Assembly: GCA_964506725.1 (NCBI GenBank)
Contig: CAZDLU010000001.1
Coordinates: 45,955-109,954 of the forward strand
From: an uncultured Rhizobium sp.
Lineage (GTDB): Bacteria > Pseudomonadota > Alphaproteobacteria > Rickettsiales > UBA1997
Direction: 5' to 3'
Length of the DNA stretch: 64,000 nt
This document shows positions 5,571 to 41,882 of this stretch, piece by piece. The notes beneath the pieces were generated by a model. That model was not told the origin of the DNA. It ran no database searches and was given only the letters and a program-made list of their open reading frames with translations. How positions within the stretch are numbered: position 1 is the stretch's first letter; each line of letters opens with the position of its first letter. Made by a program: the position numbers and the translations under genes.

Positions 5571-5633
5571 ACGCCAGTTCGGGATAAGGAAGGCTAAGTT
5601 AAATGCGTGTTGTATTAAGTTTGAATACAGGCT

Positions 5634-8555
5634 CTAGTTGCTGTCATCACTGTCTTTCTTAGAGCCTCTGTTGCTTCCTGCGGATCTGATTTCTGATTTT
5701 ATTCTGTTTGCTGTTTTGGAAGCACTGTTCTTGATTCCTTTTGCCGCTTTAAGACTGCCTTTACCTAAGCGCTTCTGTGCTGCAGAAAGGAAACCGGCAG
5801 CTTTGAAAAACATTTGTGTTGCAGATTTGCCGGATGCAGGAAGTTCAGTACCGCCAATAAGAGCTGAAGTAATGCCTGAAATTTCATCCATAAATTTATA
5901 AAGCAGATACATTATCAAAAATGCTTTGGTTAATGTTAATACGCCGGCGCGTGAAAAAATATCCGGTAAATTTTTTAAGGTTGGAATGTTGATGCCAAAA
6001 GCAGCCAAAACCGGAATCCTGCCGAAATCATTAAAACCAAGAATGCAAACCGCACTATCGCGCATCGGATTGATTATTTTGTCACCGGGATGGTCACAGG
6101 CCGGAAGAACATTCGGATCGCTTTCATTTATTACTCTATTGCCGTTGCTATCAACGCAAGATTTGTTGCAAGCCAGTGTCTTATACGGTCCGTTACCGAT
6201 GAAAGTAGCGCTGCCAATTACCGTTTTGTCAAAAGTTGTAATTAAAATTGCAATATAGGCAAAAAGTATCATGGGTTGAAGGCAGAAGCTGATTAGCTCG
6301 GTGAGCCATTTTTTAAAAATATGTTCGGTTTTTTTGAACAAGAGACAAGTGATTGTCAGCGGCGAAACAAAAATAAAAATTATTATTGATATTGCCGAAA
6401 GAAGGAAAATGTGGAGCGCACGAATCGTTAAGGAAATCAGGCAAATTCCAATAAACATCATGGCAAGTGCTAAATAAATTCCGATTGGGCCGGTAAAGAA
6501 GGAAGCTAAAACTAATGAAGCAATATTGGCAGCGGAATCTTGTGGGCCAAAACCCAAATAGCGCATGATTTTGCAATCAAGCGTATCCCAAATTGCTAAA
6601 TATTCTTTGCCGTCAGGATAGGTGCGGCCTGTTGAAGTTGTAGTGCCATCAGACAATGTAATTTCGCCGAATTGGCATCCGTCGCGTTTTGATTCATCTG
6701 TTCCGGCATCAATTTTAAAGACCAGGCGCGCGAATTCGTAAGAGCCGGAATAAAAACCGTCGAAGAACTGAGTTTGCCAGGCATCACCTAAAGCGAAATA
6801 AAAAATCACGCCGATTTTTAATATGTAAGGTGTTAACTCTTTAGTAGAAAGTTGTCCGAAACCAAGTAAAGTCTTGATTCCGTAAAACATTATCGACAAG
6901 GTTAAGACAAGTTTAATGGCATCTTTCATTACAGATTGTAATGTTTCAAAGAATGAGCGATCTAATACTTTATTGCCTTTTTTAAATATAAAATCGCCTT
7001 TGGTGATATATTCATTGCTTTGGCAAATGCCGTTAGCATCGGGATATTCATTGACGTTTAAGCATTCGCTGTGACCGGCGCGATTATAAAATAAATTTTC
7101 TAAAGTTTCTTTAACGCATTGAGCGATTGGCGCGCTGAAGTGACGCTGAGCACCGAGAACTATGCCACCGAAACTAGCTTTATTTTGTGAATCGCCGACA
7201 AAGTTACGACAAGCCGCAGAAGCGTAAGGCGAACCTATATTGGAATTGTAATTAAAAGAAGAATTAGTGCGGGTGCAGTGAGTTAAATATTGGCAATAGT
7301 TACGACATTTTCCGGCCTTGTCGTTGTAAGAACAATCCGTATTCCTGATCTCGCTTTTGCTGGCACAATTTCCGGCTTCTAAATCTTCTTGTGTTATGTA
7401 AGTCCATCTTTTATTGCTGCTTGACCAAATGCCGTCCTGATAGTAATCGCAATATTCCGTGCCGCCGCTAATTGAGAAATTGTAAGGGCAAAGACTATAG
7501 CTTTCAGCGCAAATGAAGCGATCATTATCAATAAATTTGGTGGAAAAAGTAACGGAATCGATGGTGCAAAGGCTTCCCGCCTTGCAGAATTTTTTGCCGC
7601 GACTTCCGCGATCGATGCAGATATATTGCGAGCTGCGGGCCTTACAGCAATTATAAGCTTTGGTGTAATGTGCTTGCCTGTCGCCTTCCCAATTTCTGCC
7701 GGTTACCGGATCGCTGGTTCCTTTAATTAAGTAAGAATCGCAATTATAATTACCAAGCGCCGGACCGCGCAAATAATATAGTTGTGCCGGATAATCTTCA
7801 TATTTGGCGGTTGCGACCGAACTTGCGTCAGTACGATTCGGGTCGCGACAAGTCTCTCCACTTTCGGGATTATCAATTGTTTCAACGCCTTGATAATACC
7901 ATTCCCGAAATGGTTTATAAACATCGCTGGCGTAAGATAATACTAATTTATCCGTTTCGCTATTGGTTATGAATCCGTCGATTGTTTGTTGTACCGTTGC
8001 TTTATAATCAGGAACATCAATTGAATAAAGAGTGGGGCTGGGCTTAGTCCAATTAGCACCGCAAATCTGGGTATTATTGTAAGCGTAATTGGCAATACCG
8101 TATATTGTTCCAAGCTCGGCCATCGCTGTTCCAAAAGAGGCAAGGGCGACTCCATAAGCAACGGCACAATCGGCATCTCGCGTGTTTGCTGTTGCCTTCA
8201 TAATATCAATAGCATCGCTAACAATTGAAGGCGTTACCCTTATATTACTTGCTATTCCGCAAGCAGCGTTCATTACCGGAATTGATATTTTTACTGCCGC
8301 ATAGCTGGTAGCAATTACCGTAATGCAAACCGGGTTTGTCAAAACAAATAGAGCGTCATGGCCGCCGGCATTTGGTCCTACGGTCGGGTTGAAATCAAGC
8401 CCGGAAGGTTTGCCATCGGTAGGACTGCAAGTACGGATTCGTCCCGGACCGTAATCAAAGTCAGCGGCAAAGGAATTATTATTTAAAATTAAGGCAGCAA
8501 CAAAAAACAGAAGCGAGAAAAAACCAAAAACTTTTTTTCGCAATTTTTGCATCAT
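5634..8555 (-). CDS. virB6: VirB6/TrbL-family type IV secretion inner-membrane protein (973 aa, enlarged)
   Basis: ATGA overlap with the upstream virB4 stop. Signal peptide, a ~490-aa Cys-rich N-terminal domain, and a central polytopic block (aa ~545-800, ..LFKKTEHIFKKWLTELISFCLQPMILFAYIAIL..) resembling the TrbL/VirB6 core. Charged C-terminal tail. Confidence 0.75.
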   Translation of the reverse strand: MMQKLRKKVFGFFSLLFFVAALILNNNSFAADFDYGPGRIRTCSPTDGKPSGLDFNPTVGPNAGGHDALFVLTNPVCITVIATSYAAVKISIPVMNAACGIASNIRVTPSIVSDAIDIMKATANTRDADCAVAYGVALASFGTAMAELGTIYGIANYAYNNTQICGANWTKPSPTLYSIDVPDYKATVQQTIDGFITNSETDKLVLSYASDVYKPFREWYYQGVETIDNPESGETCRDPNRTDASSVATAKYEDYPAQLYYLRGPALGNYNCDSYLIKGTSDPVTGRNWEGDRQAHYTKAYNCCKARSSQYICIDRGSRGKKFCKAGSLCTIDSVTFSTKFIDNDRFICAESYSLCPYNFSISGGTEYCDYYQDGIWSSSNKRWTYITQEDLEAGNCASKSEIRNTDCSYNDKAGKCRNYCQYLTHCTRTNSSFNYNSNIGSPYASAACRNFVGDSQNKASFGGIVLGAQRHFSAPIAQCVKETLENLFYNRAGHSECLNVNEYPDANGICQSNEYITKGDFIFKKGNKVLDRSFFETLQSVMKDAIKLVLTLSIMFYGIKTLLGFGQLSTKELTPYILKIGVIFYFALGDAWQTQFFDGFYSGSYEFARLVFKIDAGTDESKRDGCQFGEITLSDGTTTSTGRTYPDGKEYLAIWDTLDCKIMRYLGFGPQDSAANIASLVLASFFTGPIGIYLALAMMFIGICLISLTIRALHIFLLSAISIIIFIFVSPLTITCLLFKKTEHIFKKWLTELISFCLQPMILFAYIAILITTFDKTVIGSATFIGNGPYKTLACNKSCVDSNGNRVINESDPNVLPACDHPGDKIINPMRDSAVCILGFNDFGRIPVLAAFGINIPTLKNLPDIFSRAGVLTLTKAFLIMYLLYKFMDEISGITSALIGGTELPASGKSATQMFFKAAGFLSAAQKRLGKGSLKAAKGIKNSASKTANRIKSEIRSAGSNRGSKKDSDDSN

Positions 8556-10942
8556 TTAGAACCGGAGCGTTTATAATAAATCGGCAACCAATCATCAGGA
8601 TCATCGCCGACTTCGTCAATTATTTGATCCATCAAAATTACAGTGTCGGCGCGCGCTGAAAGTACGCGAATTACTTCATCCATGCCGCCTAAATCGATAC
8701 GCGCAATTACGCCGTCATTATCTTGTTTAACCAAGAAAAATCTGGTGGAAGGATCTGTTGTTTTTACCAGATTAAATTCGCGCTCTGAAAGCATAAATAC
8801 TTCGCGGTAAAGATTGGTTGCTTTCAAATTCGGTAAGAAAATTTGGGTGGCAGTTTGCTGTACTAAAGTGTCGGAAATGCTACTCTTGGCAGCATCTTCA
8901 ACCGATTGTGTGGCGAACACCACGAAAGTATTTAATTTTCTTAAAACTTTCAGCCAATCTTTAATTTTTGGCGCAAACACCGCATTTCCAATTAATGCCC
9001 AAGCTTCGTCAAGCACGATCATTGTCGGCGAGCCATCAAGTGAAGTTTGGATTCTATGAAATAAATAAAGTAGAACCGGCGCAATGGCTGATTTGTCTTG
9101 CAAAATGTGGCCCATTTCGATGCCGAAAGTGCGCGCTGAAGTAAAATCAATTAAATCTTCTTCATTATCAAAAAGTTTGGAATGCGAACCTCCGGAATGC
9201 CACATGGCAAGTCTTCCGGCCAATGTGCCGGGGCCGCCCAGCCCCATGAAAGGCGCAATATTGCGCAATCTTCTTTGTTCTTTCGGTAATTTATAATTAC
9301 CGTTTACCGCTTCATTAATGCGGTCAATTTCATGCGCCGGTAAAGGCGCTTCGCCGTTTGAAACCAGCACCTTCAAGAATTCAATTAAGAAAGAGCGATT
9401 AACATTATTATCTTCAAGTTGAAAAGGATTAAAACCGGAAACCTTAGCCGCATCAGGAATCATATAGCGTCCGCGAATGGCGCGAATAAAAATTTCTGCG
9501 CCGCGATCCTTATCGAAGAAAAATAAACGGCATTTAAATTTTTGGGCCTGAGCGCTTAAAAAATTGAGTAACACCGTTTTACCTGCGCCCGTCGGACCAA
9601 TAATCATGCTATGTCCGACATCGCGCACGTGAAAACTGAAAAAATACGGTGTTCCGGAAACCGTATTTAACACTGTAACGGCATCGCCCCAATGGTTTTT
9701 CTTCCTTTTGCCCGAAGGATAATTATGAAAAGAAGCAAAGGCGGCAATATTCAAAGTATTAATAACAGAGCGGCGCGCCATGTAATCGGCATTGCCCGGA
9801 AGCTGGGCCCAATAGGCCGGCTCCATGTTCATTTTTTCGCGAACTCCGGTAATACCGGCGTTGGAAAGCTCAACTACAGCTTGTGATAGCGCGCTTTCTA
9901 AAGCTTTCGGCGTATCCTCAACACAAAGCACACTCATATGATGATTGCCGAAAGCAAATTCACCACTCATCGCCGAATCAAGAGCTTGATCAATTTCCTG
10001 AATTTGTGAAACGGCTACGTCTTCGGATTGTACTAATCTTCGTTGTTGCAATTGCATCGAGCTAATCGCCACCATTCGATTAATGAAAGAAAAAGATTGG
10101 CTGATTATAAGTTCGAAAGGTAATTGCATGAAGCCGTCGAAAACTCCGGCATGCGTGGATGGCCGATATTCCTTGATCGAAACCAATCCGCCATATTTAA
10201 CGCCGCTCGGATTATGGACTTCGACTGATTTATTGCCGAAGTAAAGGCGACTCATCGGCAAATGATGCGAGATCTCGCCAAGCGGTACCATCATTGGTTG
10301 TGAGTAACCGCAATTGACTAAGCGTCCCAAAAATTCCAGCAATTCCGAAGTAACGCTGCCATCAGCATTTTCACTAAGTCCTAAAATTTCCGGCCCGTAA
10401 TTACCAAAACCGTTCAAAATGCGTTCGGTCATTTCGTCCAGCTCGTCGAAAGCTTCGCGCATGTAATTTTCCCAAGCCAATTTGTCAGTCTTATGCTGTA
10501 ATTTTTTGGCCATGTGTTCAAGCACGGCGACACCCGAAGTGTCAGCGCCGCGAATAATGGTAAAATAATGTTCGTTGATGAAAGTTTTATCATCGGAATG
10601 TTTTACTGCCCATTCATCATTAACTCTTTTAGAAAAAGCATCAGGCATTTCGCCATCCGGAAAGCCTTTTTCTTTGCGGCGGATAGTATGAAAATAAAGT
10701 GAAAAATTGCCGGAAGCCATACCTTTCAGCAAGTTATTGCGCGCCGCTTTTTTTAGATCAATATCAACATCATCGGCAGTTTCAAAAGCGAATCCTTTAA
10801 TTTTAATAACGCGAATAAGCTCTTCTTTGTATGTTAAGATTGTATCGGAATTATAGTGGCACTTATAAGGAATAAAATGCGCTGCCGACACTTCGCCCTT
10901 CGTGATTTTTTCTTTTGTCGGTTTGACGGTTGTAAGACGCAT
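8552..10942 (-). CDS. virB4: VirB4/CagE-family type IV secretion ATPase (canonical copy)
   Basis: 796 aa. N-terminal ..FIPYKCHYNSDTILTYKEELIRVIKIKGF.., Walker A GPTGAGKT (encoded at 9575-9598), Walker B TMIVLDEAW, and ..VFATQS.. motif C region. Confidence 0.9.
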   Translation of the reverse strand: MRLTTVKPTKEKITKGEVSAAHFIPYKCHYNSDTILTYKEELIRVIKIKGFAFETADDVDIDLKKAARNNLLKGMASGNFSLYFHTIRRKEKGFPDGEMPDAFSKRVNDEWAVKHSDDKTFINEHYFTIIRGADTSGVAVLEHMAKKLQHKTDKLAWENYMREAFDELDEMTERILNGFGNYGPEILGLSENADGSVTSELLEFLGRLVNCGYSQPMMVPLGEISHHLPMSRLYFGNKSVEVHNPSGVKYGGLVSIKEYRPSTHAGVFDGFMQLPFELIISQSFSFINRMVAISSMQLQQRRLVQSEDVAVSQIQEIDQALDSAMSGEFAFGNHHMSVLCVEDTPKALESALSQAVVELSNAGITGVREKMNMEPAYWAQLPGNADYMARRSVINTLNIAAFASFHNYPSGKRKKNHWGDAVTVLNTVSGTPYFFSFHVRDVGHSMIIGPTGAGKTVLLNFLSAQAQKFKCRLFFFDKDRGAEIFIRAIRGRYMIPDAAKVSGFNPFQLEDNNVNRSFLIEFLKVLVSNGEAPLPAHEIDRINEAVNGNYKLPKEQRRLRNIAPFMGLGGPGTLAGRLAMWHSGGSHSKLFDNEEDLIDFTSARTFGIEMGHILQDKSAIAPVLLYLFHRIQTSLDGSPTMIVLDEAWALIGNAVFAPKIKDWLKVLRKLNTFVVFATQSVEDAAKSSISDTLVQQTATQIFLPNLKATNLYREVFMLSEREFNLVKTTDPSTRFFLVKQDNDGVIARIDLGGMDEVIRVLSARADTVILMDQIIDEVGDDPDDWLPIYYKRSGSK

Positions 10943-12812: not shown

Positions 12813-12853
12813 AATAAAAAAACTTGCCGTCATGTTGAGTAAAATACTCGCAA

Positions 12854-12926
12854 GTCATGCTGAGCCTGTCGAAGCATGTGTTTATTCTCGAAGTCTCAAC
12901 ACATGCTTCGACAGGCTCAGCATGAC
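12854..12926. repeat. palindromic element, family A (copy A1)
   Basis: gtcatgctgagcctgtcgaagcatgtg .. cacatgcttcgacaggctcagcatgac. Its right end supplies the ATG used as the tolB start. Confidence 0.9.
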
Positions 12927-14289
12927 TATGAGGATTTTGTTTTTTATTTTATCATTTCTCCTTACAAATACCGCTCTTGCCAATGTTTCTCTTGTCATCA
13001 AAAACGAAAATATTGCGCGCACCAAATTATTATTTTCCGGTTTTGAAAATGTTGATCCGCTAGTGCAAAGCGATGCGCTTGATGTATTAAATCGCATCCA
13101 AAATGATTTGCGCGCCACTGATCTTTTTGAATTTGTAAAACAAAATGGAAGCCTTGAAACGGCAGGCATAAGCCGCAATATGAATTTAAATTTAAAAAAG
13201 AATTTAAATGCTGAAAACGCTTCAGTTGAAACATTGCCTGATTTTGAAAAATACAAAAAAGATGATATTGGGGCGATAGTTGTCGGCCAATTTAATTTTG
13301 ATCAAAGCGGTAATTTGGAAGTGCGCCTGCGTATGTGGGACGTGCTTGATCAAAAACAATTATTTGGTAAATATTATGTTTCTTCAAAAGATAATTATCA
13401 AAAATTAGCTAATTCAATTGCTAACGAAATTTATAAATCAATTACCGGCGAAAAATACGGGTTTTTCAATTCACAAATTCTTTATATTTCTGAAACCGGT
13501 TCGATTCATAAGCGCATTAAAAAAATTAATCTGATCAATATTGACGGTAGCGGATATCGTTCTTTAACTGACGGGCGCGAGTTGGTTTTAACGCCGATTT
13601 TTTCTAAAAGAGCCAATGAAATTTTTTATTTACGCTATTTTAAAAATCATCCGCAAATTTTTAGTTTAAATACGCAAAACCTGCGCAGCCAGAAAATAGG
13701 TGGCTTCCGCGGCACAACTTTTGCTGCCAACACCGTTCCGGAAAATAATAATTCAATTTTGCTTTCGGCGATTGTTGACGGCAATAGTGATATTTATGAA
13801 ATGGATGTTGAAAATAATGTGGCGCGGCGTTTGACAAAAAGTCCGGCGATTGATACTACTCCTTGTTACTCTCCTGATAAAAAATTGATTGCATTTTCTT
13901 CCGATCGCGATGGTTTGGGGCAGCAAATTTATTTGATGAATTTGAATGAGGCTTATGTTAAGCGCATAAGTTCTGGTTCCGGATCTTACTCTAAACCGGT
14001 TTGGTCGCCGGACGGTAAATTAATTGCTTTTACCAAAATGAAAGGTGGTAATTTTTTCATCGGTACTATGACGCCTGACGGTAAAAATGAAAAATTATTG
14101 GTTAAAGCCTATATAGTTGAAGGAGCCAAGTGGTACAAGGACAGCCGCCACTTAATTTATTCAAAAAAGCGCAGCGCCTATGGCCAAGATTCAATTCCAC
14201 GTTTGTTTGTGATTGATATTGTGACAGGAGTTGAGTTTGAAGTGCCGACGCCGGTGGGAGAGGGGGCTACCGACCCAGATTGGGTTTAA
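12922..14289 (+). CDS. tolB: Tol-Pal system periplasmic beta-propeller protein TolB
   Basis: The likely true start is ATG 12922 (MTMRILFFILSFLLTNTALA signal peptide). The upstream 55 codons of the tracked ORF run through a palindromic element. Repeated ..P.WSPDGK.IAF.. beta-propeller blades. Confidence 0.85.
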   Translation: MTMRILFFILSFLLTNTALANVSLVIKNENIARTKLLFSGFENVDPLVQSDALDVLNRIQNDLRATDLFEFVKQNGSLETAGISRNMNLNLKKNLNAENASVETLPDFEKYKKDDIGAIVVGQFNFDQSGNLEVRLRMWDVLDQKQLFGKYYVSSKDNYQKLANSIANEIYKSITGEKYGFFNSQILYISETGSIHKRIKKINLINIDGSGYRSLTDGRELVLTPIFSKRANEIFYLRYFKNHPQIFSLNTQNLRSQKIGGFRGTTFAANTVPENNNSILLSAIVDGNSDIYEMDVENNVARRLTKSPAIDTTPCYSPDKKLIAFSSDRDGLGQQIYLMNLNEAYVKRISSGSGSYSKPVWSPDGKLIAFTKMKGGNFFIGTMTPDGKNEKLLVKAYIVEGAKWYKDSRHLIYSKKRSAYGQDSIPRLFVIDIVTGVEFEVPTPVGEGATDPDWV

Positions 14290-14335: not shown

Positions 14336-14606
14336 TTGCGTGAGGAGCGAAGCGACCACCAACCCCGGCGCGAGTTGTCTTCGAGCCGAAGGCGAGAAAA
14401 GCAACGAAGCGTGAAGCACTCAAAATTCTTTAAACGGGGCGCGCACGACGGAAATTTATTTCCGGCAAATCGATCTTAACGATCGATTTGAGTAAGTCGC
14501 GGGCGAAACGAAAGTTGAGCCCAGGGCTATTGCGTGAGGAGCGAAGCGACCACCAACCCCGGCGCGAGTTGTCTTCGAGCCGAAGGCGAGAAAAGCAACG
14601 AAGCGT
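14336..14606. repeat. two copies of a 77-bp GC-rich direct repeat (14336-14412 and 14530-14606)
   Basis: ttgcgtgaggagcgaagcgaccaccaaccccggcgcgagttgtcttcgagccgaaggcgagaaaagcaacgaagcgt occurs twice, 194 bp apart. Each copy is preceded by a near-identical hairpin (atcgaccttaacggtcgat at 14301; atcgatcttaacgatcgat at 14470). Confidence 0.9.
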
Positions 14607-21076: not shown

Positions 21077-22342
21077 ATGACGAATATAGCAATAATCGGC
21101 CTGCAATGGGGCGACGAGGGTAAGGGGAAAATCGTGGATTGTTTGTCCGATAAATTTGACGCCGTTGTTAGGTTTCAGGGCGGTCATAATGCAGGGCATA
21201 CTATCAAAGTTGATGATAAAACATATAAATTAAGTTTGTTGCCATCCGGCATAATTCGTGGAAAATTCTCAGTAATTGGAAGCGGTGTAGTTGTTGATCC
21301 GGTGGCGCTTTTTAAAGAAATTTCCAATATTGAAGATTTAGGATTGAAAGTTACGCCGCAAAATTTGGCAATTGCTGATAATGCTTGCTTGATTTTGTCA
21401 GTGCATCGTGAACTCGATCAATTGCTGGAAGCTAAAAAAGGTGCAAAAAAAATCGGTACGACAGGACGCGGAATTGGTCCGGCTTACGAGGATAAGGCGG
21501 GAAGACGAGCCATTAGAATTTGTGATTTATATAATGAAAAGATTCTAAAAGAGCGAATTGAGAATTTGCTTTTTTATCACAATTTATTGCGTCAGAGTTT
21601 GGGTGCAGAAATTGTAACGGTTGAACAAATTCTGTCAGAGCTTGAGCCTGTCGGTTCACGCTTGCTAACTCACGCTAAAAGTGCTTTCGATATTGCCAAA
21701 ATTTTGCGGGATAAAAAAATTATGTTTGAAGGTGCGCAAGGCGCTTTGCTTGATGTTTCTTACGGAACTTTTCCTTTCGTTACTTCTTCGAATACGGCAG
21801 CGGGACAGGTGGCTCTTGGTTCCTGCTTAGGCGTGGCGGATTTGCATAAAACAATTGGAATTCTAAAAGCTTATACCACGCGCGTTGGTTCGGGCCCTTT
21901 TCCAACTGAATTAAATGACGAAACCGGCGAATTTTTGCGCGTTGAAGGCAAAGAAGTTGGAACTGTAACCGGTCGCGATAGGCGCTGCGGTTGGTTTGAC
22001 GCTGTGTTGGTGCGTCAATCAATTCAACTTTCTTCAGTAAAAGAAATTGCTTTAACAAAATTGGATGTTTTGGATAAGTTAGAAAAAATCAAAATTTGTG
22101 TTGGTTATAAAATCAATGGTGAGACTTATGATTATTTACCGCAAGCCATAAATCTATGGGATAAAATCGAACCTATTTACGAGGAAATTTCCGGTTGGAA
22201 AGAAGTTACGGTTGGTGCTAAATCATTAAATGATTTACCAAGAAATGCTCGCAAATATATTGCGCGCATCGAGGAATTATGCGGCGTTAAAGCCACAATA
22301 ATTTCTACAGGTGCGAAACGCGAAGATACGATTTTTGTTTAA
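21077..22342 (+). CDS. purA: adenylosuccinate synthetase
   Basis: The true start is likely ATG 21077 (MTNIAIIGLQWGDEGKGK P-loop). GGHNAGHT and TTGRGIGPAYEDK motifs. Confidence 0.95.
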   Translation: MTNIAIIGLQWGDEGKGKIVDCLSDKFDAVVRFQGGHNAGHTIKVDDKTYKLSLLPSGIIRGKFSVIGSGVVVDPVALFKEISNIEDLGLKVTPQNLAIADNACLILSVHRELDQLLEAKKGAKKIGTTGRGIGPAYEDKAGRRAIRICDLYNEKILKERIENLLFYHNLLRQSLGAEIVTVEQILSELEPVGSRLLTHAKSAFDIAKILRDKKIMFEGAQGALLDVSYGTFPFVTSSNTAAGQVALGSCLGVADLHKTIGILKAYTTRVGSGPFPTELNDETGEFLRVEGKEVGTVTGRDRRCGWFDAVLVRQSIQLSSVKEIALTKLDVLDKLEKIKICVGYKINGETYDYLPQAINLWDKIEPIYEEISGWKEVTVGAKSLNDLPRNARKYIARIEELCGVKATIISTGAKREDTIFV

Positions 22343-22352
22343 AAACTCCATA

Positions 22353-22445
22353 GTCATGCTGAGCCTGTCGAAGCATGTTTTAGAACTGGGAGTATAATAA
22401 TCATGCTTCGCCCTTCGACAGGCTTAGGGTGACGCTCAGCATGAC
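22353..22445. repeat. palindromic element, family A (copy A2)
   Basis: gtcatgctgagcctgtcgaagcatg .. tcatgcttcgcccttcgacaggcttagggtgacgctcagcatgac. Lies between purA and the GT4 gene. Confidence 0.9.
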
Positions 22446-23641: not shown

Positions 23642-23654
23642 GCGCTTCTCGATA

Positions 23655-23760
23655 TCATGCTAAGCATCACCCTGAGCCTGTCGAAGGGCGAAGCATGATT
23701 ACTCCGAATTCAACATCATGCTTCGCCCTTCGACAGGCTCAGGGTGACGCTCAGCATGAC
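23655..23760. repeat. palindromic element, family A (copy A3, long form)
   Basis: tcatgctaagcatcaccctgagcctgtcgaagggcgaagcatgat .. tcatgcttcgcccttcgacaggctcagggtgacgctcagcatgac. Lies between the GT4 gene and kdsB. Confidence 0.9.
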
Positions 23761-23773
23761 ATCAAATTTTTTT

Positions 23774-27329: not shown

Positions 27330-27429
27330 AAATTATTTTGATTGTTTTGATTACTACTATTGTGGTGATAGCTGGGATGGTTTGGCTTAATTCGGCAAGT
27401 TACAATGGCAAAAAAGAGGGTAAGCCTAA

Positions 27430-27512
27430 CTCGATGTCATCCTGAGCATGTCGAAGGATGATTCATGCCCGAATCTAGAATCATTCTTCGACATGCTCAG
27501 GATGACATCGAG
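27430..27512. repeat. palindromic element, family A variant (copy A5)
   Basis: ctcgatgtcatcctgagcatgtcgaaggatgattc .. gaatcattcttcgacatgctcaggatgacatcgag. Lies between engB and hslU. Confidence 0.9.
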
Positions 27513-27624
27513 TCGGTGGTTCAAGATTACATTGAGTGGCTTAAGATGATATTGATTTTAGCACTGGAAATTTTCAAGTAGCGTTATTACATTAAAACAA
27601 CTTGCAAAATTTTTACTAAATTAA

Positions 27625-29060: not shown

Positions 29061-30377
29061 ATGATTCCTCGTTACTCTCGACCGGAAATGGTCAAAATCT
29101 GGTCGCAAGAAAATAAATATCAAATCTGGTTTGATATTGAAATTTATGCTCTTGAAGCTTTAGAAAAATTAAAAATTGCTCCGGAAGGAACGGCCGAGCG
29201 GATTCGTGGCAATTTTGAAAAAGCCGGCGGCGCGTTTAATTCTGATAGAATTGACGAAATTGAAAGCGTAACGAAGCATGATGTGATTGCTTTCTTGACG
29301 CATTTGGCAGAATTAGTTGGTGAAAATTCGCGCTTCATTCATTACGGAATGACCAGTTCTGATGTGCTTGATACTTGCCTTTCGGTTCAACTCGCGCAAG
29401 CTTCCGACATATTAATTGCGGATTTGGAAAAGCTTTTAGCGGCGATAAAAAAACGTGCTTTTGAATATAAAGACACAGTTTGCACAGGCCGCTCGCACGG
29501 CATTCACGCTGAGCCTGTGACGTTTGGTTTGAAGCTTGCAAGATTTTACGCCGAGTTTGAAAGAAATTTAAAACGCCTAAAAAGTGCTAAAAAAGAAATT
29601 GCGGTTTGTGCCATATCCGGCGCGGTTGGAACCTTTGCCAATGTTGATCCGTTTGTGCAAAAATATGTGGCGGAAAAATTGGGATTAGAAGAAGAGGGCG
29701 TTTCAAGTCAAGTAATTCCAAGAGATCGTCACGCTGCGTTCTTTGCTGCTCTAGGCGTGATTGCTTCTTCAATTGAAAATTTCGCTGTTGAAATTCGTCA
29801 TTTACAAAGAACGGAAGTTTTGGAAGTTGAAGAGTTTTTTGCAAAAGGTCAAAAGGGAAGTTCGGCTATGCCGCATAAACGTAATCCGGTGTTGAGTGAA
29901 AATTTGACAGGCCTTGCGCGCATTGTGCGCAGCGCGGTTACACCGGCTTTAGAAAATGTGGCACTTTGGCACGAACGCGATATTTCGCATTCTTCGGTTG
30001 AAAGAATGATTGCTCCGGATGCTACCGTGACGCTTGATTTTGCGCTTGCTCGACTTGCGGGGCTTGTGGAAAATATGTTGGTTTATCCGGAAAACATGAA
30101 GAAAAATTTAGAAAAATTAAACGGCCTAGTTTTTTCGCAGCGCGTTTTGTTAACTTTGATCGAAGAAGCCAAAATATCGCGCGAAGACGCTTACCGCATA
30201 GTTCAAAGCAATGCCATGAAAGTTTGGAAAGACGGTTTTAGTTTTTTAGATTTGTTAAAAAATGATCCGGAAGTTCAAGGAAAAATTTCCGAAAAAACTT
30301 TGGAAGAAATTTTTGATTTGAATTACCATACGAAAAATATCGATCATATTTTTAAGCAAGTTTTTAAAAATTTATGA
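29061..30377 (+). CDS. purB: adenylosuccinate lyase
   Basis: The true start is likely ATG 29061 (MIPRYSRPEM..); the tracked start at 28998 lies inside a palindromic element. Fumarate-lyase signature GSSAMPHKRNP. Confidence 0.95.
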   Translation: MIPRYSRPEMVKIWSQENKYQIWFDIEIYALEALEKLKIAPEGTAERIRGNFEKAGGAFNSDRIDEIESVTKHDVIAFLTHLAELVGENSRFIHYGMTSSDVLDTCLSVQLAQASDILIADLEKLLAAIKKRAFEYKDTVCTGRSHGIHAEPVTFGLKLARFYAEFERNLKRLKSAKKEIAVCAISGAVGTFANVDPFVQKYVAEKLGLEEEGVSSQVIPRDRHAAFFAALGVIASSIENFAVEIRHLQRTEVLEVEEFFAKGQKGSSAMPHKRNPVLSENLTGLARIVRSAVTPALENVALWHERDISHSSVERMIAPDATVTLDFALARLAGLVENMLVYPENMKKNLEKLNGLVFSQRVLLTLIEEAKISREDAYRIVQSNAMKVWKDGFSFLDLLKNDPEVQGKISEKTLEEIFDLNYHTKNIDHIFKQVFKNL

Positions 30378-30799
30378 AATTAAATTTTGATTATTTAGAA
30401 CGCTGTAATCTTACTCTTGAGCGCTCACTTGAAAGTTTGGTAAAAACAACAAAAGGCACAATAGATTACGAAGTTTCGCGTAATGCCGTAGTAAAAAGTT
30501 TTGAATTAACTTTAGAAACTGTCGGAAAAATTCTGCGCAAGATTTTGAAATTTTATATGGCGTCACCAAAAGAAGTTGATGCTTTGGTTTACAAGGATGT
30601 GTTACGCCATGCGGCACTCCGCGGTCTAATGACCAATGAAGAATTAGAACGCTGGTTGCAATATCGTGATAATAGAAATTCAACGGCCCATGATTATGGT
30701 GAAGAATTTGCGGAAAATACTTTGGAATTAATTATTGATTTTCAGAAAGATGTTACAAAATTACATCAGCAATTAGTAAAGAAATATGAGCAAAAATAA
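30374..30799 (+). CDS. HI0074-family nucleotidyltransferase substrate-binding (HEPN-like) protein
   Basis: 141 aa, helical. R-x4-H motif in ..YRDNRNSTAHDYGEE... ATGA overlap with the purB stop. Paired with the downstream minimal nucleotidyltransferase. Confidence 0.75.
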   Translation: MKLNFDYLERCNLTLERSLESLVKTTKGTIDYEVSRNAVVKSFELTLETVGKILRKILKFYMASPKEVDALVYKDVLRHAALRGLMTNEELERWLQYRDNRNSTAHDYGEEFAENTLELIIDFQKDVTKLHQQLVKKYEQK

Positions 30800-31109
30800 T
30801 CTTCAATTACGAAGTGAACATTTGCAAATGCTGCGCAAAATTTTGATGTCGTACGTGCCTGATGCCGAAGTGTTTGCTTATGGAAGTCGTGTTAACGGGG
30901 ATGCTCACGATGCTAGTGATCTTGATATTGTTATTCGTAATCCAAAAAATCTTTTGCAAAAACAAACTTCGGCAATTGCTGATTTACGCGCGGCGCTAAG
31001 CGAGAGTAATCTTCCTTTGCTTGTTGATGTTCATGATTGGGCGGCGCTGCCCGAAGAATTTCATAAAAATATTTCTGAAAAATATTTTGTTATTCAGACC
31101 GCTAAATGA
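30786..31109 (+). CDS. minimal nucleotidyltransferase (MNT, HI0073-like)
   Basis: 107 aa. GS-x10-DxD motif (AYGSRVNGDAHDASDLDIVI). Overlaps both neighbours (14 nt upstream, ATGA downstream). Confidence 0.8.
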   Translation: MSKNNLQLRSEHLQMLRKILMSYVPDAEVFAYGSRVNGDAHDASDLDIVIRNPKNLLQKQTSAIADLRAALSESNLPLLVDVHDWAALPEEFHKNISEKYFVIQTAK

Positions 31110-32330: not shown

Positions 32331-33314
32331 TTAGGCACCTTTTTTTAGCTTTTTCTTCAAATTTTTTCGCCATAATTTCAGCCTTTGCTTTAATGGTGGC
32401 GCAACTTGTGCTAAAGTTTTAGAATTAGGATCAAAAGCTTGTTTTGGTTTTTTATAATTCTTTTTGAAATGTTTTAAAGCCGCATCAAAAATATAAATCG
32501 GAATCCAGCTTAAATTCAAAGTATGACACCAAATCGGCTTGTTTGTGGATTCCTCAATGGCAAAAAACCTACCATCCGGATTCATATGAATAATTTGCAT
32601 ATCTTCACCAAGCGGTAATTTTGTCATTTTCATGCCGTCGGAAACGCAAATTACTTCACCAAAAAGTGAATCTTGAGCGTCCGGTTTATTTACCGGAAGT
32701 GCTTTAAATTTTACTTCTTTTTCATAAATTTCATAGGCCGTCATTTCATTGAAAGACCAAGGCCCCGTTTGGTTTGCAAGTTCAGATTTTATTTTTGTAA
32801 TATAATCTTTTCTTAAAAATAATTCGTTAATTTTTTTAACGTAACCGTCAATTACTTCCGGATTTCTAAAGAAGGCTTTGAAGCAGTTGCCGTGGCACTG
32901 CACGGTGCAATCGTAATCCTGATATTTATATTCCAAAGTTGATAAATCGGTGAAAACCATATTATCAGAATCAAAATGCCAAAATTCCTTGATGCCTTCT
33001 TTTTTTACAAAATTATAAAGAATAAACCATTTACGAAAAACGAATTTATTCCAATCTTCGCCATGCTTGAAAGCATCAAATTCCTTGGTTGCAATCAGTT
33101 CATAAACTTCGTCGAACCTTTTTAAATCATCGCCGAAATCATAATCTTTAAGCAAAAAATGTTTAAGACCATGTTTTTCCGCAACCGCTTTGTTTGAAGT
33201 ATCTCCCAGTAAAATTATGTCGCTGTCTGGATTAGAAAGTCGAGTTGATTGAAAAACGTAAGGCAGATATTTTGAATTGCCGTAGTGGCAGTAGATTATT
33301 GGATTATGTTTCAT
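32331..33314 (-). CDS. hypothetical protein, possible DXD-motif nucleotide-sugar transferase; strongly basic C-terminus
   Basis: 327-aa ORF. ..FRKWFILYNFVKKEGIKEFWHFDSDNMVF.. resembles the DXD region of GT-A-type transferases. C-terminal KQRLKLWRKNLKKKLKKGA. The function call is weak. Confidence 0.45.
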   Translation of the reverse strand: MKHNPIIYCHYGNSKYLPYVFQSTRLSNPDSDIILLGDTSNKAVAEKHGLKHFLLKDYDFGDDLKRFDEVYELIATKEFDAFKHGEDWNKFVFRKWFILYNFVKKEGIKEFWHFDSDNMVFTDLSTLEYKYQDYDCTVQCHGNCFKAFFRNPEVIDGYVKKINELFLRKDYITKIKSELANQTGPWSFNEMTAYEIYEKEVKFKALPVNKPDAQDSLFGEVICVSDGMKMTKLPLGEDMQIIHMNPDGRFFAIEESTNKPIWCHTLNLSWIPIYIFDAALKHFKKNYKKPKQAFDPNSKTLAQVAPPLKQRLKLWRKNLKKKLKKGA

Positions 33315-33420
33315 AGTTTTTAGGAGAATTGTGATGAGTTGAGATTTAGATTTTTGATGGGTTGAAAGTTGGAGTTTTATTTATGTTTTTGCTTCGCTGA
33401 ATCTATCAAAAAATTTTTTT

Positions 33421-33803
33421 CTGGCCTGCCAGGCGTAGCTTTAGCGAAGCCTGGTTGGGACGGCAGGATTACTGCGCAAGCGCAGTTGCAAGTCGTTAAG
33501 ATTTTTCTAAATTCACTTCGTTCATTAAGAAAAATTATAACTTGTTGTCGAACCTAAGGTTCGAACCTGCGAGTTTATAAAAAAATTTATATTCTTCTGG
33601 CCTGCCCGGTGTAGCTTTAGCGAAGCCTGGTTGGGACGGCAGGATTACTGCGCAAGCGCAGTTGCAAGTCGTTAAGATTTTTCTAAATTCACTTCGTTCA
33701 TTAAGAAAAATTATAACTTGTTGTCGAACCTAAGGTTCGAACCTGCGAGTTTATAAAAAAATTTATATTCTTCTGGCCTGCCCGGTGTAGCTTTAGCGAA
33801 GCC
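33421..33803. repeat. 176-bp tandem repeat (2 full units plus the start of a third) re-copying the 3' end and downstream flank of tRNA-Gln
   Basis: Units start at 33421, 33597 and 33773. Units 1 and 2 differ at 2 positions. Each carries tggttgggacggcaggatt, which is the last 19 nt of tRNA-Gln including CCA, read on the + strand. Each also carries a second T-arm fragment, ggttcgaacctgcg. Confidence 0.9.
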
Positions 33804-33878
33804 TGGTTGGGACGGCAGGATTCGAACCTGCGGGTGGCGGTACCAAAAACCGCTGCCTTACCACTTGGCTACGTCCCA
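33804..33878 (-). tRNA. tRNA-Gln (anticodon UUG), CCA encoded
   Basis: Reverse complement: TGGGACG TA GCC AAGTGGTAA GGC A GCGGT TTTTGGT ACCGC CACCC GCAGG TTCGAAT CCTGC CGTCCCA A CCA. This folds as a cloverleaf with a 7-nt anticodon loop, U33 and anticodon TTG. Confidence 0.9.
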
Positions 33879-33939
33879 GCAAAGTGAGCGAGGCATTGTA
33901 AAAGTGCGATTGTTGATTGTCAACAGTTTAGCTTTTAAC

Positions 33940-33968
33940 TTGACAAACGCCTCAAACTTCTATTAAAT
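33940..33968 (+). promoter_or_regulatory. candidate sigma70-type promoter for pntAB
   Basis: TTGACA at 33940-33945, followed 15-17 nt later by TATTAAAT (33961-33968), about 37 nt upstream of ATG 34005. Confidence 0.35.
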
Positions 33969-34004
33969 TTGTCCCATATTTTCCCCCAATAATTTTTAAA
34001 AATT

Positions 34005-34394
34005 ATGAGCAATATCCACGAAATCGTTGAGCTTTCTGATCAAATTAAACAAAACTCTGATTTATTAGTGCAAAAAGTTATCGAACTTAGTTATCTATCG
34101 GCAAATGGTGGCGGCGTAAGCCCATTTGTTTTTGGTTTAGCAGTTTTTATCTTGGCTTGTTTTGTTGGCTATTTTGTAGTTTGGAAGGTGACCCCGGCCT
34201 TACATACACCTTTGATGGCGGTTACTAATGCAATTTCCGGCGTAATTGTGGTTGGCGCAATTATTGCTCTTGGTTCAGCCAAAGATTTTACTTTTATTTC
34301 TTTCTTAAGTTTCGTTGCTATTGCCATTGCTTCGGTAAATATTTTTGGTGGTTTTCTGGTAACTTGGCGCATGCTTGAAATGTTCAAAAAATAA
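34005..34394 (+). CDS. pntAB: NAD(P) transhydrogenase subunit alpha part 2 (small membrane subunit of the split alpha)
   Basis: 129 aa, 3-4 TM. ..[24 protein letters not shown].. is the conserved PntAB core. Confidence 0.8.
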
Positions 34395-39794: not shown

Positions 39795-40235
39795 TTATTT
39801 CGCCAACTCCTTGGCCCGCGCCTCAAACGCATCCATCATTTTCTCTGTCGCTTTCTCAAAAATCACGCCAATCAGTTTTGTCAGCAAAATCGAGTTAAAT
39901 TCAAAATCGATAAAAAAACTAACCTCACAACCATTTTGCAAATCCTTGATGCGCCATTGATTTACAAGCTTTTTGAAAGGGCCTTTAATTGCAACTACAT
40001 CGATAAAATATTCATCATTATTTTTGCCATGCGTAACATTGGAAGTATATTTTTCAAAAAAACTTTTAAAATTTATTAACAAATCAGCTTCTAAATTTTC
40101 ATCGGAAATTATTTTGGTAATTTTTGCTTGCTTGCACCAAGGCAGAAATTGTGGGTATTGCTCGATGTCCATTACCAAATCGTGGAGAAGTTTGGCGGGA
40201 TAGGGGAGTGTTTTTGTTTGTTTTAGTGAAGGCAT
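39795..40235 (-). CDS. ratA: SRPBCC/START-fold protein, RatA / COQ10-like
   Basis: 146 aa. ..LPYPAKLLHDLVMDIEQYPQFLPWC.. matches the polyketide-cyclase/RatA family pattern. Confidence 0.75.
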   Translation of the reverse strand: MPSLKQTKTLPYPAKLLHDLVMDIEQYPQFLPWCKQAKITKIISDENLEADLLINFKSFFEKYTSNVTHGKNNDEYFIDVVAIKGPFKKLVNQWRIKDLQNGCEVSFFIDFEFNSILLTKLIGVIFEKATEKMMDAFEARAKELAK

Positions 40236-40240
40236 GTTTT

Positions 40241-40352
40241 AAGTGCTTAAGTGCTTAGGTGCTTTCGCGCTGACGCGCTAGTGCTTAAGTAGTTCTCGTT
40301 TTTCTTAAGCACCTAAGCACTAGCGCGTCAGCGCGAAAGCACTTAAGCACCT
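40241..40352. repeat. palindromic element, family B (copy B2)
   Basis: aagtgcttaagtgcttaggtgctttcgcgctgacgcgctagtgcttaag .. cttaagcacctaagcactagcgcgtcagcgcgaaagcacttaagcacct. Long imperfect hairpin between the ratA start and the ffh stop. Confidence 0.85.
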
Positions 40353-40361
40353 AATAACTAC

Positions 40362-41702
40362 CTAACCAATATTCTTCATCATCTCCTGCATTTTCTGCGG
40401 ATCAATTTTTCCAAATTTCCCCATCATTTTTTGCATTTGCTTATATTTTTTAAGCAAACGATTAACCTCTTGAATCGTTGAGCCGGCGCCTTTCGCGATG
40501 CGATGTTTTCTTGAGGAATTTAAAATATCGGGGTTTCTTCTTTCTTTTTTCGTCATTGATAAAATCAACGCTTCCTGCAATTTAATATCTTTTTCAAAAT
40601 TATTCATCTGTCCCAATTGTTCTTTTATTTTTCCCATTCCGGGCAAGAAATTCAATATTCCGCTAAGGCCGCCCATTTTTTTCATATTGCGAATTTGACT
40701 AAGCAAATCGTCAAAATCAAATTGGCCTTTTTGCATTTTTTTGGTCGCTTTTTCCATTTCGTCAGCATCAAACATTTCTTGAGCTTTTTCAACTAACGAA
40801 ACCACGTCGCCCATGCCGACAATTCTTGACGCGATGCGATCGGGATTAAACTCTTCCAAATCTTCCAATTTTTCACCAACACCGATAAATTTTATCGGGC
40901 AATTTGTGGCAGCTTTCATCGTCAAAGCCGCACCACCTCTGGCGTCGCCGTCCAAACGCGTTAAAATAATTCCGCTAATTTGTAATTTTTCGTTAAAATT
41001 TTTGGCAACATTTACAGCGTCTTGACCAATCATGGCATCAACAACGAGTAAGATTTCTTGCGGGTTAGTAATTTTTTTAACCGCCACAATTTCTTCCATC
41101 ATCATCTCGTCAATATGAGTTCTTCCGGCAGTATCTAAAATCAAAACATCATATCCCAAATCAACAGCCATTTGCATTGAACGCTTAGCAATTTCTAATG
41201 GTTTTTGCTCATCAATGATTGGCACAAAATCAACACCAACTTTTTGCGCTAAAATTTCTAACTGCTTTTGCGCCGCTGGTCTGTAAGTATCAAGCGATGA
41301 AAGCAAAACGCGTTTATTATTTTTATTTTTTAAACGCAGCGCCAATTTTCCCGAAGTGGTAGTTTTCCCCGAAGCCTGTAAACCGGCCATCAAAATCACA
41401 ACTGGCGGCTTATGGCTAAAATTAATTTCTGCTCTTTCGCTACCAAGTAATTTTACTAATTCATCATGGACGATTTTTACAATCATCTGACCCGGCGAAA
41501 CGCTCTTGGTAACCTGCTGCCCCAAGGCTTCAGCCTTAACTTTTTCAATAAAATCTTTTGCAATTGTAAGAGAAACATCGGCCTCTAAAAGCGCGATTCT
41601 GATTTCGCGCATGGTGGCATTTAAATCGTCTTCCGAAATAAATTTTTTGCCGGAAATCTTGTCGAAAACTTTTGTGATTTTATTGGAGAAATTGTCGAAC
41701 AT
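40362..41702 (-). CDS. ffh: signal recognition particle protein Ffh
   Basis: 446 aa. GLQASGKTTT, DTAGR and TRLDGDARGGAAL GTPase motifs, plus a Met-rich M domain. Confidence 0.95.
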   Translation of the reverse strand: MFDNFSNKITKVFDKISGKKFISEDDLNATMREIRIALLEADVSLTIAKDFIEKVKAEALGQQVTKSVSPGQMIVKIVHDELVKLLGSERAEINFSHKPPVVILMAGLQASGKTTTSGKLALRLKNKNNKRVLLSSLDTYRPAAQKQLEILAQKVGVDFVPIIDEQKPLEIAKRSMQMAVDLGYDVLILDTAGRTHIDEMMMEEIVAVKKITNPQEILLVVDAMIGQDAVNVAKNFNEKLQISGIILTRLDGDARGGAALTMKAATNCPIKFIGVGEKLEDLEEFNPDRIASRIVGMGDVVSLVEKAQEMFDADEMEKATKKMQKGQFDFDDLLSQIRNMKKMGGLSGILNFLPGMGKIKEQLGQMNNFEKDIKLQEALILSMTKKERRNPDILNSSRKHRIAKGAGSTIQEVNRLLKKYKQMQKMMGKFGKIDPQKMQEMMKNIG

Positions 41703-41769: not shown

Positions 41770-41799
41770 GATAACTTCAATGTCATATAAAAGTAAAAA

Positions 41800-41882
41800 C
41801 TCGATGTCATGCTGAGCCTGTCGAAGCCTGTATTTGTACTCCGAGTTTTAACACCTGCTTAGACAGGCTCCGTGACATCGAG
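41800..41882. repeat. palindromic element, family A (copy A4)
   Basis: ctcgatgtcatgctgagcctgtcgaagcctg .. cacctgcttagacaggctccgtgacatcgag. Immediately upstream of deaD. Confidence 0.85.

Follow-up and report, generated by a model that had tools for sequence, protein, structure and literature searches.

The tandem array that follows the tRNA-Gln gene in the stretch of DNA analysed here, 64 kb of an alphaproteobacterial chromosome that we call the window, is probably a divergent alphaproteobacterial RtT-type repeat, that is, the trailer of a tRNA transcription unit and a relative of the E. coli repeats described by the Rfam family RF00391. The array itself is a real feature, and the sequence-only reading that drew attention to it saw it correctly. 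Its putative membership in the RtT group rests on transitive homology together with an identical architecture. The kind of repeat is already known, with apparent novelty in host class, tRNA and sequence variant.

Anatomy of the array behind tRNA-Gln

The tRNA-Gln(UUG) gene, with an encoded CCA, lies on the minus strand at 33804-33878, where ARAGORN and Rfam (RF00005, 65.9 bits) make the same call as the sequence-only reading. Upstream of the gene stands a sigma-70-type promoter (33895-33923, minus strand; TTGACA, 17 nt, TACAAT; 11/12 matches). On the other side, Tandem Repeats Finder reports a single array at 33419-33822, with a 176-bp period, 2.3 copies and 99% matches, which bears out the proposed 176-bp tandem unit. 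Followed along the minus strand, the array includes the last 19 nt of the tRNA gene as its first, partial repeat copy (33804-33822), continues with unit 1 (33628-33803), which begins directly 3' of the tRNA and on the same strand, and with unit 2 (33452-33627), and closes in a third, diverged copy of the trailer (33395-33451; family D2, 93% identity) that carries two substitutions and then a 4-nt indel. The two complete 176-nt units are the same in this phase, with identical alignment rows, and in the phase chosen by the sequence-only reading they differ at two positions (gccaggcg versus gcccggtg), exactly as it had stated.

Along the tRNA strand, a 57-nt trailer comes after the tRNA; next stand GCAGG-TTCGAACC-TTA-GGTTCGA-CAA and an extended AT-rich hairpin, and then TTGCAAC, hairpin ACTGCGC-TT-GCGCAGT and the repeated 19-nt tRNA end, after which the whole 176 nt repeats and the diverged trailer comes last. 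The invariant 20-mer core GGTTCGAACCTTAGGTTCGA, which forms hairpin H1 (TCGAACC / TTA / GGTTCGA), is found at 33724-33743 and again at 33548-33567 (minus strand, as are all features of the units). Directly before it lies GCAGG (33742-33746), equivalent to the 5' strand of the T-stem and pairable with the CCTGC of the 19-nt copy; a GGCAGG further upstream in the trailer is likewise complementary to the unit's 3' end. The AT-rich hairpin H2 has its core at 33678-33710 and 33502-33534, and hairpin H3, ACTGCGC-TT-GCGCAGT, abuts the tRNA-derived fragment at 33647-33662 and 33471-33486. The fragment itself, AATCCTGCCGTCCCAACCA, occupies 33628-33646 and 33452-33470.

These resemblances to the tRNA exceed what composition would give. 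Three exact occurrences of AATCCTGCCGTCCCAACCA, at 33452, 33628 and 33804 (minus strand) and thus 176 nt apart, compare with none expected from 100 shuffles. The T-stem 5' strand with half of the T-loop, CGCAGGTTCGAA, also occurs three times (33560, 33736 and 33821, minus strand), a count never reached in shuffles, where the mean is 0.34, and within each unit this T-arm 5' half sits ~100 nt upstream of the 19-nt copy. Other details of the sequence-only reading stand as well: each unit carries the terminal 19 nt of the tRNA plus about 30 nt of its flank (the copy runs ~33 nt past the tRNA, and loosely ~57 nt), the T-stem/T-loop 5' half is repeated, and the insert opens with a second AGGTTCGA. 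A unit thus looks like the acceptor/T-arm half of its cognate tRNA in which the T-loop has been replaced by the core and hairpins.

On either side of the array, short-read Logan contigs from the same sample break off, so the junctions are real, while the exact figure of 2.3 copies rests on the submitted assembly.

The surroundings are those of an ordinary chromosome. On the array side, the gene order is hslU, purB, a HepT/MNT pair, an HI0933-like flavoprotein, a 327-amino-acid orphan, the array and tRNA-Gln; beyond tRNA-Gln, and divergent from it, follow pntA2, a LamG protein, a sulfatase, PAP2 and thiC. Genes for virB4 (two copies) and virB6-like genes are dispersed in the window and suggest a Rickettsiales-like alphaproteobacterium; a syntenic MAG contig bears the label Alphaproteobacteria.

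Related loci behind tRNA-Gln

Three relatives (L008, L009 and L052), retrieved via the neighbouring flavoprotein and so independently of the repeat motif, keep the synteny hslU-purB-...-tRNA-Gln/pntA2-sulfatase-thiC, and in each a single unit, with the same core and a copied tRNA 3' end, follows tRNA-Gln. In L008 and L009, the flanks after the tRNA and after the copy differ, and the repeat consists of the 19 nt only; in the window, in L018 and in L004, a one-unit locus labelled Alphaproteobacteria, it also takes in 28-33 nt of host-specific flank.

Across related alphaproteobacterial loci, the number of units behind tRNA-Gln is 0, 1 or at least 2, and it differs even between near-identical contigs (one unit in L027, at least two in L018), so the copy-number variation that the sequence-only reading had suggested looking for is present, and its descriptions of a 'tRNA-derived satellite' that has 'amplified in tandem' are apt. 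Another lineage (L041 and L043) has a period of 140. Both repeat junctions are found in independent assemblies of related strains (L018, L019, L027, L040, L041 and L043). Relatives of the window unit are often single units rather than tandem ones.

Two further configurations frame the range of variation. In the close relative L048/L049, the element is absent, and a hairpin homologous to H2 of the window directly follows tRNA-Gln; the element is therefore dispensable. In L050/L051, a second tRNA-Gln, complete in its 5' part, stands just upstream of the intact gene and carries the element's interior within its T-loop, which makes 'split in the T-loop' an accurate description of the unit.

A core shared with GC-rich tRNA-Arg loci

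A metagenome scan with the 20-mer GGTTCGAACCTTAGGTTYGA returned 38 loci. About one-third are of the low-GC tRNA-Gln type seen in the window; the others are GC-rich (54-61% GC) and consist of the identical 20-mer, then GC-rich hairpins, then ATCCTGTCGGGCGCGCCA, which is the last 18 nt of the upstream tRNA-Arg(CCG). In one GC-rich locus the adjacent tRNA is tRNA-Arg(CCT). The tRNA-derived end matches the neighbouring tRNA in every case, be it Gln, Arg (CCG or CCT) or Tyr, and the core is common to all; over 20-25 nt it is invariant across the alphaproteobacterial and GC-rich lineages. Because CCTTAGGTTCGA is identical behind tRNA-Gln and tRNA-Arg and differs from tRNA-Arg's own sequence at that place, TCACAGGTTCGA, it is intrinsic to the element.

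The GC-rich loci are varied in their arrangement. In L025, L034 and L036, a tRNA-Arg 3' half running from the anticodon loop through ...GGTCACAGGTTCGAA leads into the core. Successive modules in L017 and L029 have different terminators after each 18-nt copy, and the units of L014 come downstream of a genuine segment of 8.5 kb whose boundaries are a 49-nt tRNA-Arg repeat. A few GC-rich copies (L023, L033, L039 and L044) lie away from any tRNA and could be the ends of larger rearrangements.

Transitive homology to the E. coli RtT repeats

In E. coli K-12, tyrT is followed by an RtT-like spacer unit, tyrV and then a 178-bp unit repeated 3.1 times. Every one of these units ends in AATCCTTCCCCCACCACCA, the last 19 nt of tRNA-Tyr, and carries GGGGAAGG upstream, complementary to CCTTCCCC, the core GCTTCGACCAAGGTTCGAC and the junction GAGT/AATCC. 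The annotated rttR (1287066-1287236), which encodes RtT RNA of about 171 nt, extends from 7 nt past tyrV exactly to the CCA that closes the first 19-nt copy. With RF00391, the four E. coli units score 133-137 bits against a gathering threshold of 45 bits; at a relaxed threshold the model also matches GC-rich loci at 32.7 bits (E = 0.005) and 27.2 bits, both sub-threshold. The lead to RF00391 arose only from this Rfam search of GC-rich relatives and not from the window alone.

A strong homology chain runs through intermediates. The window shares 25/25 core positions with L020 and with L022 (z = 17-18). L020, which is alphaproteobacterial, aligns with an E. coli unit over AGGTTCGAC..GAGCGCCAGCGA at 21/23 positions (z = 11, 0/500 shuffles), and two GC-rich loci align with the E. 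coli spacer unit at 24/24 (L022, z = 16) and 29/30 positions (L045, z = 19). Compared directly, the window and E. coli are weakly similar (z ~3; 6-7/500 shuffles as good), and RF00391 has no match in the window at its gathering threshold and none at E <= 10 over 33300-33960. The homology is thus a transitive one that depends on the intermediates; as the GC-rich ones were retrieved by the 20-mer itself, the core link they provide is not independent. The ...AGT/AATCC junction between H3 and the tRNA fragment of the window is common to the E. coli RtT units (GAGT/AATCC).

The two arrays are alike in most of their plan. Both come right after a tRNA gene and on its strand, both consist of tandem units of similar size and number (178 bp x 3.1 in E. 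coli, 176 bp x 2.3 in the window), and in both each unit ends in the upstream tRNA's last 19 nt, including the CCA. They also share a strand upstream that is complementary to the tRNA fragment, a TTCGA(A)CC-loop-GGTTCGA motif, the GAGT/AATCC junction and, through intermediates, hairpin cassettes. They differ in the tRNA, which is Gln in the window and Tyr in E. coli, and in the host, which is a low-GC, Rickettsiales-like alphaproteobacterium rather than an enterobacterium. The internal hairpins of the window are AT-rich and unalignable with those of E. coli, the E. coli core is one A short and forms its loop from AA in place of TTA, the curated Rfam model misses the window unit, and no tpr-like ORF is present in the window. 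Expression and processing have been demonstrated in E. coli, according to the literature, whereas the window unit is known from its sequence.

Transcription signals and predicted RNA structure

The strong promoter at 33895-33923 is the sole promoter-like site on the tRNA strand within 33250-34050, and a simple scan of that strand finds no terminator-like site between the tRNA and the units. Reading TTGCAA...TAATCC inside the unit as a promoter was ruled out by its spacing, which shifts with the length of the H3 loop. The distal flank (33395-33451, minus strand) contains CTGG-CAGG-CCAG and then A7T6, by eye a possible end of the transcription unit, although no terminator was returned by the simple scan. 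Between the tRNA and the element of the GC-rich relatives stands a strong intrinsic terminator, which disfavours simple co-transcription there.

The window unit folds better than its shuffles (fold energy z = -4.1), and the GGCAGG/CCUGCC helix is present in its minimum free energy fold. For eight distinct alphaproteobacterial units, RNAalifold predicts an outer helix P1 (GCAGG/CCUGC, invariant across all eight), the core hairpin H1 (UCGAACC/GGUUCGA) and hairpin H3; 92% of cells in the predicted helices are paired, versus 21-41% when the partners are slid. Three pairs of H3 are changed on both sides among relatives. P1 and H1 show almost no variation, the covariation score is equalled by 5/500 shuffles, and covariation support for the predicted helices is accordingly modest. 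The sole changes seen in H1 convert a pair to G-U on the tRNA strand, slightly favouring a structure read on that strand. Whether the element is of the Tyr, Arg or Gln version, the upstream strand of its outer helix complements the tRNA-derived fragment.

Searches for a recombinase and for mobile relatives

Of the 54 non-overlapping ORFs in the 64-kb window that reach 100 amino acids, 50 were searched with Pfam and none encodes a recombinase or transposase, in keeping with the earlier remark that the window holds no integrase; no integrase lies beside the element in ~50 related loci. The flanking ORFs, considered as sources of an autonomous partner, are ordinary chromosomal genes in L011, L013, L014, L023, L025 and L026, and also in L028, L029, L032, L038, L039 and L044 save for two transposase-like ORFs. 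These two, in L028 and L029, resemble IS481/IS3-type and IS91-family transposases, judged by eye from their translations, and we read them as unrelated insertions.

Mobile-element collections gave no relative. IMG/VR contains no match for the 19-nt tRNA fragment or the 20-mer, and its only three matches to the 18-mer are all in an unrelated operator-like palindrome of one phage. In the phage and plasmid collections searched with blastn, the unit has only chance matches, and the window holds no further copies of the element's repeats. Among GTDB genomes, the 19-nt fragment outside an intact T-loop is matched five times, four of them by chance and one being L004, the first true relative. Literature searches on miniature integrative elements or island remnants at tRNA genes returned no relevant match.

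Several other candidates were considered and set aside as misfits in spacing, junctions or gene content: an IS91 GTTC target, IS200/IS605-type hairpin ends, Tn7/CAST homing spacers, the alphaproteobacterial LexA box (GTTC-N7-GTTC), a two-piece tmRNA, Y-RNA-like RNAs and T-box double T-loops.

Discussion

If the array is an RtT-type trailer repeat, as we think probable, its units would be transcribed by read-through from the single tRNA-Gln promoter. Each unit would finish in a helix resembling a T-stem and acceptor, followed by an ...ACCA tail, and the tRNA 3'-end maturation enzymes would therefore cut the read-through transcript into ~176-nt RNAs that end at the internal CCA. One RNA per unit is predicted by analogy with the annotation of E. 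coli rttR, and we infer that a processed RNA of ~176 nt is the most likely product of each window unit. One unit may have become two by unequal homologous recombination or by replication slippage between direct repeats of at least 50 nt. As a guess, the RNA might serve as a mimic or decoy of the acceptor end of the uncharged cognate tRNA, which would agree with the effect on the stringent response reported for RtT.

Published work on RtT supports this reading. RtT is freed from the tyrT transcript, as it is from further tRNA operons (PMC4986893; PMC3318445), has been seen on Northern blots in Pasteurellaceae, beside Asn and Lys tRNA genes (PMC4986893; PMC3318445), and is linked to the stringent response (PMC4986893; PMC3318445; bioRxiv 10.1101/2024.07.17.603846).

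Two other classes of repeat or RNA invite comparison. The small RNAs of tRNA 3' external transcribed spacers, such as 3'ETS-leuZ of E. coli, are stable RNAs freed from a tRNA trailer by tRNA-processing nucleases. An origin in the trailer of a tRNA transcript is a likeness that we predict for the window units too, but the 3'ETS RNAs come from single-copy spacers with neither a copy of the tRNA 3' end nor tandem repeats, and they act as base-pairing sponges. The interior of RtT-like units, built of interchangeable short stable hairpins (loops GAAG, GCAA, GAAA and CTTG), recalls REP/BIME repeats, and the same hairpin cassettes recur between loci, even between E. coli and GC-rich metagenome loci. 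REP sequences are dispersed in hundreds of copies and untied to tRNA ends, whereas the RtT-like element occupies a single locus per genome and has tRNA-derived termini.

The sequence-only reading had taken the units for stacked att relics or for a miniature non-autonomous integrative element. On such an account, a tyrosine integrase, acting in trans or since lost, would recombine a small circle with the 3' end of tRNA-Gln, restoring the gene and displacing the old 19-nt end downstream each time. A direct repeat of a tRNA's last 18-19 nt is typical of islands formed by P4-type integrases. Here, too, the last 18-19 nt of a tRNA gene recur downstream of an intact gene, as they do in P4-type integrase islands, tandem accretions and cis-mobilizable elements; direct repeats of the tRNA 3' part bracket the inserted DNA, units are stacked in some relatives, and presence and absence vary among relatives, with an 'empty' site in L048. 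The differing terminators in L017 and L029 look like the outcome of independent accretion, and the position of the L014 units beyond an 8.5-kb segment bounded by a tRNA-Arg repeat also suits an att origin. Yet the unit is only 176 bp long and has no cargo, no integrase was found in the ORFs scanned or beside the related loci, and no attP match turned up in viral, phage or plasmid collections. The repeat in the window, L004 and L018 holds 28-33 nt of host-specific flank, unlike an attP/attB identity block, and because an attP would not share flank across hosts, this speaks against att sites. The T-arm 5' half and the hairpins are kept between bacterial classes, as in functional sequence, and the E. 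coli homologue is a processed small RNA and no known att site. The insert of the sequence-only reading is no foreign cargo but a conserved, non-coding module with transitive homology to the RtT repeats of E. coli, and we now consider att relics quite improbable.

Insertion may have played a different part. The core could be, or descend from, a small mobile element that inserts at the T-loop, GGTTCGA^ATCC, of tRNA genes or their fragments, with insertions surviving only in spare copies, the half T-arms derived from the host, the middle from the element and the array arising secondarily; we judge this unlikely, if worth keeping in mind. It accords with L050/L051, where a tRNA-Gln copy whose 5' part is complete holds the interior precisely in its T-loop, with the continuation of a tRNA-Arg 3' half by the core in L025, L034 and L036, with the presence of CCTTAGGTTCGA at tRNA-Gln and tRNA-Arg loci alike and its foreignness to tRNA-Arg, and with the way both ends track the resident tRNA, whether Tyr, Arg or Gln. 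We know of no candidate enzyme for such insertion, which counts against it, as do the lack of terminal inverted repeats or of a consistent target duplication, the single copy locus in the window and the fixed syntenic place that most copies occupy in each lineage instead of being dispersed; the few GC-rich copies off tRNA genes are possibly ends of rearrangements. A mere local duplication, in which slippage near the tRNA end copied functionless intergenic DNA, or an assembly artefact, would fit the identity of the two full units (the last duplication must be recent), the breaking of short-read contigs at the array and the one relative without the element (L048/L049). The core and architecture recur, though, in dozens of independent loci from different bacterial classes and beside three kinds of tRNA, both junctions are present in independent assemblies, and a 25-nt block stays invariant while its flanks diverge beyond alignment, which is not expected of a neutral relic. 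Such an account is highly improbable overall. For the element itself it is excluded, though the precise number of copies could reflect a choice of the assembly.

An RtT-type trailer repeat is thus the reading that we carry forward, though an ancient recombinational origin at the T-loop is possible. A conserved core module (GGTTCGAACCTTAGGTTCGA, hairpins and GAGT) is set between the half T-arms of the resident Tyr, Arg or Gln tRNA. The literature adds cases at Asn and Lys tRNAs, and the core is shared by Alpha- and Gammaproteobacteria. This pattern would support the view that RtT-type modules, more than local duplications, are a horizontally spreading element, derived from a tRNA minihelix and inserting into the T-loops of tRNA genes or fragments; the view has an outside chance of being right. 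If true, it would explain a repeat unexplained since 1978 and amount to a bacterial counterpart of tRNA-derived SINEs.

The tyrT repeats and their RNA have been known for more than 40 years, with no accepted function or origin; the primary literature of 1978-1991 is reportedly that of Egan and Landy, Rossi et al. and Bösl and Kersten. The window and the relatives described here extend the RtT architecture far beyond the enterobacteria, to Rickettsiales-like alphaproteobacteria with tRNA-Gln and to GC-rich uncultured bacteria with tRNA-Arg. For genome annotation, RtT-like arrays ought not to be labelled as borders of islands, and they escape the current Rfam model; the comparative data on the core, the outer helix and the variable hairpins can now be used for a broader covariance model and for experiments. 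Together, an invariant core and ends that mimic whichever tRNA lies next door point to a selected RNA or to a specific recombination mechanism, rather than to an accident of E. coli.

Gene neighborhood of the array

Downstream of the tRNA-Gln unit and co-directional with it lies a 327-aa open reading frame (ORF) on the minus strand (32331-33314) that matches no Pfam family; at three related tRNA-Gln loci (L004, L008 and L009), its place is taken by a small protein (~160-170 aa) that carries a DbpA RNA-binding domain. Further along, purB and an HI0933-like gene flank a HepT-like/MNT nucleotidyltransferase toxin-antitoxin pair (30374-31109), which is absent from the corresponding position in L008, L009, L050, L052 and L048, the last being a relative without an RtT-like element. 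The window also encodes a 973-aa VirB6/TrbL-like protein (5634-8555) and two separate VirB4 proteins (8552-10942 and 52691-55180), and this set, dispersed amid housekeeping genes, recalls the vir-homologue type IV secretion system of Rickettsiales.

Other repeats in the window

Several further repeats share the window with the array. The gap that separates the array from the 5' end of the 327-aa ORF contains a 23-nt tandem unit in 2.3 copies (AGAGTTTTGATGAGTTGAAAGTT on the plus strand; 33325-33378). Past a TolB-like gene, an intergenic 77-nt direct repeat occurs in two perfect copies (14336-14412 and 14530-14606) spaced 194 nt apart, and within it we recognized GTGAGGAGCGAAGCGAC, a hairpin cassette also present in the RtT units of Escherichia coli and in the GC-rich relatives that carry RtT-like units behind tRNA-Arg. 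REP-like palindromes (GTCATGCTGAGCCTGTCGAAGCATG... and variants) form one dispersed intergenic family (12846-12947, 22341-22445, 23651-23763, 27428-27535 and 41777-41870). The 64-kb window contains no RAYT-type transposase. Palindromic and short tandem repeats additionally lie beside ffh (40230-40363) and past the trigger factor gene (58490-59378), with the units TTAAGTGC and GTGCTCGG, the latter having an inverted copy at a distance of 716 nt.

Variant units and rearrangements at related loci

Among the relatives, the RtT-like element takes several forms. L050/L051 carry a tandem pair of tRNA-Gln copies on the minus strand (12968-13446): in the upstream copy, the T-loop is split by an RtT-like interior and the final 8 nt are missing, and the downstream copy is intact. 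A variant unit with the core GGGTTCGAGCCTCAGGTTCGA in L052 (14646-15356, minus strand) has an interior of ~330 nt that contains short tandem repeats of its own (cctgaaacttctcag-like).

At three loci (L041, L043 and L031), the array has a period of 140, and its second unit is cut off within the last hairpin and followed by pntA2. Here pntA2 runs in the direction of the tRNA, in contrast to its divergent orientation at the other loci, and the arrangement implies an inversion with a breakpoint inside the RtT-like element.

In two of the GC-rich relatives (L014, and L029 at about 5560-5660), the 3' half of tRNA-Arg(CCG), from the anticodon loop on, recurs as a 49-nt copy preceded by the conserved sequence cacttagagaa..tacg.acgccctc. 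In L014 (495-9100), an 8.5-kb segment starts with the intact tRNA-Arg and ends with the 49-nt copy. This copy looks like a genuine island border adjoining RtT-like units.
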